Below are positions 37,545 through 39,451 of a stretch of 64,000 nt of DNA, one piece after another. The notes below the pieces were generated by a model. It saw nothing but the letters and a program-made list of their open reading frames with translations. It was not told the DNA's origin and made no database searches. This DNA comes from Escherichia coli O157:H7. GTDB taxonomy: Bacteria > Pseudomonadota > Gammaproteobacteria > Enterobacterales > Enterobacteriaceae. The stretch lies in the NCBI RefSeq assembly GCF_013167455.1, contig NZ_CP038328.1. One strand, given 5' to 3'. A program made the position numbers and the translations under genes. Positions within the stretch are counted from its first letter, which is position 1. The number at the start of each line of letters is the position of its first letter.

Positions 37545-37808
37545 TCAGGCGCGGATTTGTTGTGATGTGGTTGTGCTCTGGCAGATGGCAACGTGTGCGA
37601 CGTCCACCAGTTTATTTAACTGACTAAACAGTAAGTCGACCGACCGTGGGCTGGCAACGGTCAATTCGATATTTATATTTTGTGCATCGCTGGCGGCGGC
37701 CATATTCATTGAGCAGACGTGGAAACCACGATGACGCACCACGCGTAAAACACGTTCTAAGGTTTCCGGATTGAAGCGAGCCGATACATTGACCTGATGT
37801 TGCATCAT
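37545..37808 (-). CDS. ilvM: acetolactate synthase II small subunit
   Basis: 87 aa ORF; 4 bp overlap with ilvG stop. Confidence 0.9.
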
Positions 37809-39451
37809 GATAATTTCTCCAACATTTCTGAATTACTGGCACCAGGCGGCACCAGCGGCCAGACGTTCTCAAGTTCGTCGATTGAGACATGAAGCAGGTA
37901 TGGCCCATCACTGTTCAGCATGGTGTCGAGTGCCGCTTCAACCTGGTCTTTACGGGTGATGTGTTGGCCAGGGATGCCGAAGGCGCTGGCTAACTTGAGG
38001 AAATCGGGGTTATCGGTAAGGGTGGTTTCGCTGTATCGTTCCTGGAAAAACAGTTGCTGCCATTGTCGAACCATCCCTAACCGTTGGTTATCGAGTAAGA
38101 CGATTTTCAACGGTAACTGCTTGCGTTTTACGGTGCCCAGCTCTTGTACATTCATCATGAAAGAGCCGTCACCGGAGATACAGACGACGGTATCGTTTGG
38201 TCGCGCGACTTGCGCGCCAACCGCCGCCGGTAAACCAAAACCCATGGTGCCTAAGCCGCTGGAGGTAATGAAATTTTCCGGGCGAGTGTGTGCGATGTGC
38301 TGCGCGGCCCACATCTGATGCTGCCCCACATCTGTGGTCACAACGCAATCCGCAGGTTTACGATCCGACAGTTGTTTTAACAACAACGGCGCGTAGATAG
38401 CGTCACCGGGATGGTCGTAACGCCAGGCATGTTCATCACGCAGCTGCGCGCAGTATTGCTGCCAGTCATTGATATTTAATGGCTGCTGTAATGCTGGTAA
38501 CAGCGCATTTAAATCACCCTGTAATGCCACATGTGCCTGACGCAGCTTGTTCATTTCTGCCGGGTCGATATCCATATGGATAACACTGGCGTGTGGTGCG
38601 AAGGTGTTCAATTTGCCGGTCACCCGGTCATCAAAACGTGCACCCACGGCGATCAGCAAGTCGCACTCCTGCACCGCGAAGTTCGCCGCTTTGGTGCCAT
38701 GCATTCCCAGCATGCCCAGATAGTACGGATAATCTGCTTCAACTGCGCCCAGCCCTTTCAGCGTGCAGGTGGCAGGCATTTTTGTGGTAGCGAGAAATTC
38801 TCGTAAAGCAGGAACTGCCTGCGCCATACCCACGCCACCACCAACGTACAGCATCGGTTTTTGCGCTTTTGCCAGCATCTGGCGCGCTTGCTCAACTTCG
38901 GCATGTGGGAAAGTCACTTCGTTTTCAACGGTGGTGAACCACGGTTCCAGGTCGCCGCTGGCTAACTGGATATCTTTTGGGATATCGACCAGAACCGGAC
39001 CAGGACGACCTGAGCTGGCAACGTCGAATGCTTCAGCCATAATGCGCGGCAACTCTTCCAGCGACTGCACCAGAAAGCTGTGCTTGGTACAGGCTAACGA
39101 CAATCCCAGGACATCCACTTCCTGAAATGCGTCAGTACCGATAAACGGTGCGGACACTTGACCGGTGATGGCAACAACAGGGATAGAATCTAACAGTGCG
39201 TCCGCAAGCCCGGTTATCAGGTTGGTTGCGCCCGGACCAGACGTGGCGATACATACGCCAGTTTTGCCGGTAGCACGGGCATAACCGATAGCCGCCATTG
39301 CCGCACCCTGCTCATGTCGGCACAGCAAGTGCTCCACGCCGCCGTCATACAATGCATCGTAAACCGGCATAATTGCGCCACCCGGATAACCGAAAACGGT
39401 GTTCACACCCTGTGCCCGCAACGCATGTACCACCCACTGTGCGCCATTCAT
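37805..39451 (-). CDS. ilvG: acetolactate synthase II large subunit, intact reading frame
   Basis: Uninterrupted 548 aa ORF; ThDP-dependent enzyme motifs; first structural gene after the ilvL attenuator. Confidence 0.95.

Follow-up and report, generated by a model that had tools for sequence, protein, structure and literature searches.

Acetohydroxyacid synthase II (AHAS II) is an enzyme that depends on ThDP, FAD and Mg, and it carries out the first common step in the synthesis of valine and leucine and of isoleucine. Strains of Escherichia coli K-12 do not have AHAS II and starve for isoleucine when given valine, and the frameshift in their ilvG gene is polar on ilvEDA. The K-12 ilvG lesion was reportedly first described by Lawther et al. 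in 1981. AHAS II is the one E. coli isozyme that valine does not inhibit, unlike isozymes I and III, and the ilvG lesion of K-12 has been linked to valine sensitivity (PMC8605374, PMC7066862, PMC3446290, bioRxiv 10.1101/2025.10.31.685768). An initial annotation of the DNA described here had named that lesion as the cause of valine sensitivity in K-12, and the same four sources bear it out.

The lesion itself has been described at the nucleotide level. The premature TGA of K-12 ilvG is placed at nt 982-984, and a one-base deletion within that TGA brings back the reading frame together with valine resistance in evolved MG1655 (PMC8605374). Elsewhere the lesion is called "two separate base pair insertions" (PMC3032704).

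The locus considered here lies in a window of 64,000 nucleotides, the whole stretch of DNA that was analyzed. Its closest described relative is the ilvG of E. coli O157:H7 (WP_001012623.1), which has the same boundaries and is 100% identical over the 2,156 bp of ilvL-ilvX-ilvG-ilvM and over 24.5 kb, with no difference at the locus. The ilvG of K-12 MG1655 (b4488) sits at the same locus in the same operon with the same leader and attenuator, and the two genes share 97.3% nucleotide identity. The closest solved structure is that of the large subunit of E. coli AHAS I, IlvB (PDB 6lpi), with which residues 2-544 can be aligned (E = 1.4e-162). IlvB is like IlvG in being a three-domain ThDP enzyme of the same fold family, but it is the large subunit of a paralogous, valine-sensitive isozyme and has IlvN rather than IlvM as its partner. 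E. coli AHAS II itself was not among the structures found by a PDB sequence search.

The ilvG reading frame and its product

The gene for the catalytic (large) subunit of AHAS II, ilvG, is the sole open reading frame at 37805..39451 on the minus strand. It runs for 1647 bp from an ATG start to a TGA stop and encodes 548 aa, both by the listing of open reading frames and by separate translation. The listing, the raw sequence and the translation contain no internal stop between these positions. The initial annotation had described an uninterrupted frame of this length at these coordinates, and a recount looking for the frameshift or premature stop that would speak against it found neither. The strand, which had been left unstated, is the minus strand.

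The family assignment is equally direct. The NCBIfam equivalog profile for the AHAS II catalytic subunit (NF006524) scores 1074 bits, where the cutoff is 738, and residues 1-547 of the protein match positions 1-547 of the 548 in the profile. Given this score and the 548 codons, a chance open reading frame is excluded. The Pfam domains TPP_enzyme_N, TPP_enzyme_M and TPP_enzyme_C are all complete, each over approximately the whole profile: the N-terminal Pyr domain (PF02776) at residues 1-115, the central domain (PF00205) at residues 186-321, and the C-terminal PP, ThDP-binding domain (PF02775) at residues 374-522. In O157:H7 records with 100% DNA identity, the identical boundaries are annotated as ilvG, the acetolactate synthase 2 catalytic subunit WP_001012623.1.

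The motifs expected of such an enzyme are also in place. E47 lies within RHEQGA, and a GDG-x25-N motif, which includes D428, spans residues 427-455. In ThDP enzymes generally, the glutamate that corresponds to E47 activates ThDP, and the GDG...N motif binds metal and ThDP. The residues E47, F109, Q110, K159, M250, R276, V375, D428, M460 and W464 are all present; the roles of these ten are presumably those reported in the mutagenesis literature on AHAS II. Taken together, the most probable reading, at roughly 0.97, is that 37805..39451 encodes a full-length IlvG of the ordinary wild-type kind on a chromosome of the O157:H7 lineage, with AHAS II predicted to be active.

The lesion in K-12 ilvG

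In MG1655 (NC_000913.3), ilvG (b4488) is annotated as a pseudogene of 1645 bp, 2 bp shorter than the 1647 bp found here. Global alignment of the two genes gives 44 substitutions and a single 2-bp gap. The gap falls within nt 977-980 of ilvG, an ATAT tract that is 2 bp shorter in K-12 and intact in the window at 38472..38475 on the minus strand. In the window gene the tract reads N326-I327-N328-D329. In K-12 the reading is L325-N326-Q327-TGA, with the stop at codon 328 and a 327-aa product from which all of the C-terminal ThDP-binding domain (residues 374-522) is missing. The position of this stop agrees with the TGA at nt 982-984 noted above. This alignment, which had been proposed with the initial annotation, thus locates the lesion; the frameshift ascribed there to K-12 is confirmed by the pseudogene annotation and by the 2-bp deletion with its stop after 327 aa.

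Because the K-12 gene is the shorter one in the alignment, the lesion is a deletion and not insertions. Relative to the intact alleles, K-12 carries a 2-bp deletion in the ATAT tract, contrary to the wording of PMC3032704. The full ATAT tract is present in the window, and the deletion of the K-12-type pseudogene is absent from its ilvG.

Distribution of intact and K-12-type alleles

The frequency of the two states was estimated from 5,426 complete E. coli genomes with short junction probes. The probe for the K-12 state is a 40-mer centered on the K-12 junction. The longest exact stretch that it shares with the window gene is 18 nt, so that intact alleles cannot give the 28-bp seed needed for a match. 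The K-12 junction is found in 340 of the 5,426 genomes, and all of the matches that were sampled (40/40) belong to laboratory strains derived from K-12, among them MG1655, DH5-alpha, JM109, HB101, MC4100 and J53.

An intact junction flanked by K-12-type SNPs is present in 3,496 genomes. The junction allele of the window occurs in a further 337, and those sampled are O157:H7 or related STEC. The intact junction is therefore found in at least 3,833 of the 5,426 genomes (3,496 + 337), with about 1,253 falling outside this three-probe classification owing to SNPs close by that interrupt the 28-bp seed. Intact ilvG is the norm in E. coli and K-12 is the exception. As the state of most of the species, an intact ilvG rules out K-12 without singling out any one strain.

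The ilvLXGMEDA operon

The genes on the minus strand follow the order ilvL-ilvX-ilvG-ilvM-ilvE-ilvD, and the locus is a canonical ilvLXGMEDA operon with its leader peptide and attenuator intact. The leader peptide ilvL (39591..39689, minus strand) has 32 aa, is rich in Ile, Val and Leu, and reads MTALLRVISLVVISVVVIIIPPCGAALGRGKA; the open reading frame scores 81.9 bits with NCBIfam NF007744, and the peptide is 100% identical to that of K-12. It is followed by the attenuator terminator, a G+C-rich hairpin and then U8, at about 39535..39570 on the minus strand. RNA folding of 39528-39585 on this strand gives -23.3 kcal/mol with z = -3.86. A consensus scan for terminators missed the attenuator, owing to an internal mismatch in the stem, and the hairpin was recovered by direct folding. 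The ilvL leader and the attenuator are identical base for base to those of K-12.

Two further observations concern the same region. Rfam family RF02744, titled 'Soft rot Enterobacteriaceae Rev 39 5'UTR', matches 39471..39760 on the minus strand over its full length with 156.5 bits and encloses the attenuator. Judged by this overlap, RF02744 and the ilvL leader seem to be the same element under two names. Upstream of ilvL, the AT-rich segment at about 39742..39875 has 11 substitutions relative to K-12 in about 135 bp, or about 8%, against 2.7% inside ilvG.

Between the attenuator and ilvG lies ilvX (39454..39504, minus strand), an open reading frame for a 16-aa peptide directly upstream of ilvG, which is assigned by its position and by its sequence match to the annotated ilvX of K-12 and O157. 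The small subunit of AHAS II, encoded by ilvM (37545..37808, minus strand), has 87 aa and matches NCBIfam NF008362 with 133.9 bits as well as Pfam ACT_5. The ATG of ilvM overlaps the TGA of ilvG as ATGA, an arrangement that is read here as a putative translational coupling of the two genes. The next gene in the operon is ilvE, for the branched-chain amino-acid aminotransferase, at 36596..37525 on the minus strand, which is a gene of 930 bp in the 100%-identical O157:H7 record. Its annotated ATG start falls inside a longer open reading frame with a TTG start (36596..37591). Downstream in the operon, ilvD encodes the 616-aa dihydroxy-acid dehydratase (34681..36531, minus strand), as identified from the open reading frame and the annotation.

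This anatomy fits a mechanism that can be outlined for the source strain, in which enzyme activity, valine insensitivity and attenuation are predicted from established knowledge. Expression from ilvLXGMEDA would be under attenuation, with ribosomes stalling on the Ile/Val/Leu-rich ilvL and so blocking formation of the terminator hairpin. IlvG and IlvM, as AHAS II, would then catalyze the ThDP-dependent condensation of pyruvate with a second pyruvate or with 2-ketobutyrate. In K-12, the loss of 2 bp at nt 977-980 ends IlvG at residue 327, ahead of the C-terminal ThDP-binding domain. AHAS II would be active in the source strain, which would grow when valine is supplied and be free of K-12-like polarity on ilvEDA. 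Given the intact gene, valine resistance is predicted for this strain.

Comparison with other alleles

When the frame of K-12 IlvG is repaired in silico, six amino-acid differences from the window protein remain (S146C, T222A, Y333H, A342S, K486M and P494H). Four of the six lie 3' of the frameshift, and drift of the pseudogene was considered as their source; no clear signal of it is seen, as H494 is the one residue peculiar to K-12. The intact ilvG genes of the B strain C2566 and of 120899, B19695 and 24A16CRGN010 also encode 548 aa, in the same operon order and with an identical IlvM (WP_000983255.1). They differ from the window gene by 29-93 nucleotides and by scattered conservative amino-acid polymorphisms. 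Among the six alleles compared, K486 is found only in the window allele, with M in the others, and H494 only in K-12; the remaining differences are shared polymorphisms. Codon 486 corresponds to 37994..37996 on the minus strand of the window, and the residue aligns with Q in AHAS I, so the site is not conserved. The same comparison shows P10 of IlvX to be private to the window allele, with S10 in K-12 and in the four other alleles.

These private residues bear on whether an open frame is enough. IlvG could be inactive or poorly expressed in this lineage in spite of its frame, for instance through M486K, through S10P in IlvX or through SNPs in the promoter region. K486 and P10 are indeed confined to the window allele among the six, and the 11 SNPs in the approximately 135 bp upstream of ilvL could make the level of expression differ from that in K-12. 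Set against this, all of the catalytic and cofactor residues that were checked are present, the full-length equivalog score is far over its cutoff, and position 486 is Q in the active AHAS I. In addition, about 337 genomes of the O157:H7 type are fixed for the allele, with no frame-breaking change in the sampled records, and the leader and attenuator are unchanged. A loss of function of this kind is accordingly given very little weight. A milder possibility is that M486K, S10P in IlvX and the SNPs upstream of ilvL, with the leader and attenuator conserved, might give AHAS II lineage-specific properties or alter expression of ilvGMEDA; this is also improbable, if marginally less so. The preferred reading remains that of an ordinary, full-length IlvG.

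Strain background

The initial annotation had inferred a non-K-12 background of the Escherichia/Shigella type, and this holds; the 100% identity allows it to be narrowed further, to the O157:H7 lineage of E. coli. Many O157:H7 genomes match the 2,156-bp ilvLXGM segment at 100% identity. A block of 24,501 bp (window 18000..42500) is 100.0% identical to O157:H7 FRIK1989 and OkiPb01687 and 98.3% identical to K-12; together with the 44 SNPs in ilvG, this supports the view that the DNA is not of K-12 origin. For the same block, 317 of the 5,426 genomes are at 99% identity or above, and the next tier is at 98.3%. Positions 1821..10000 of the window, too, are identical to FRIK1989. The lineage is thus E. 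coli O157:H7 as judged from chromosomal identity; the genes for the O and H antigens lie outside the window.

Two other origins were weighed. The DNA might derive from Shigella or from another Escherichia species, as the collection searched consists of E. coli assemblies only. However, the 24,501-bp block is perfectly identical to several O157:H7 genomes, with the 317 genomes at or above 99% set apart from a next tier at 98.3%, and sampling of the 337 genomes that carry the junction allele gave O157:H7 or related STEC. Such perfect identity makes this alternative very unlikely, with scarcely any probability left to it. The DNA might instead come from a derivative of K-12 whose ilvG has been restored, by reversion to valine resistance or by engineering to ilvG+. 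In evolved MG1655 the frame has been regained through single-base deletions within the TGA (PMC8605374), and engineered reversion has been reported (bioRxiv 10.1101/2025.10.31.685768). Against such an origin, the window has 44 SNPs relative to K-12 within ilvG, is 98.3% identical to K-12 but 100% identical to O157:H7 over 24.5 kb, and carries a hemX repeat count and a tRNA duplication that K-12 does not have. A restored K-12 allele is refuted by the 44 SNPs and the 100% identity to O157:H7, and its probability is vanishingly small. An O157:H7-lineage chromosome remains the reading of choice.

The hemX and tRNA features had been put forward with the initial annotation as marks of a non-K-12 strain, and both hold, given 15 hexamers in hemX against 2 and a leuT-proM duplication that is absent in K-12. 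The hemX gene (419 aa) is at 670..1929 on the plus strand and has 15 perfect ACCTGC hexamers at 1797..1886, which encode a Pro-Ala run near the C-terminus. The hexamer is present in 11 copies in O157:H7 FRIK1989. The sole difference from FRIK1989 in window positions 1..10000 is the corresponding 24 bp in the hemX tract, so that, even inside the O157:H7 lineage, this tract behaves like a VNTR.

The tRNA cluster at 7012..7674 on the minus strand contains a 226-bp unit that is perfectly duplicated in tandem at 7026..7488. The argX-hisR-leuT-proM order of K-12 becomes Arg-His-Leu-Pro*-Leu-Pro in the window. The register of the repeat is kept for 237 bp, that is, the 226-bp unit and an 11-bp GGATTCGAACC found in the T-arms of both tRNA-Pro and tRNA-His. 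This 11-bp microhomology suggests recombination there as the origin of the duplication. Pro* (7240..7314), the inner copy, is chimeric and joins the 5' body of tRNA-Pro to the 3' acceptor strand of tRNA-His. It is probably a pseudo-tRNA, since it has an Rfam score of 34.6 bits against 65.8 for the normal copy and is left unannotated by PGAP in FRIK1989.

Other RNA features of the window are as expected for this chromosomal region, including the GlmZ sRNA (3176..3382, minus strand) and the thermometer in the trxA 5'UTR (24259..24358, minus strand). A complete rRNA operon (16S, tRNA-Glu, 23S, 5S, tRNA-Asp and tRNA-Trp) at 42979..48204 on the minus strand corresponds to rrnC.

Concluding remarks

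The intact state of this ilvG is already known, in that the exact allele is annotated in hundreds of O157:H7 genomes. To call the gene intact is correct but ordinary, and it is the broken copy of K-12 that is unusual. In practice, the observation serves as a sanity check of the annotation and of the strain assignment: the window is not from K-12, and its ilvG predicts growth that would be resistant to valine and expression of ilvEDA that would be unpolarized. In niches that contain valine, such as urine, AHAS II is the only active isozyme (bioRxiv 10.1101/2025.10.31.685768).
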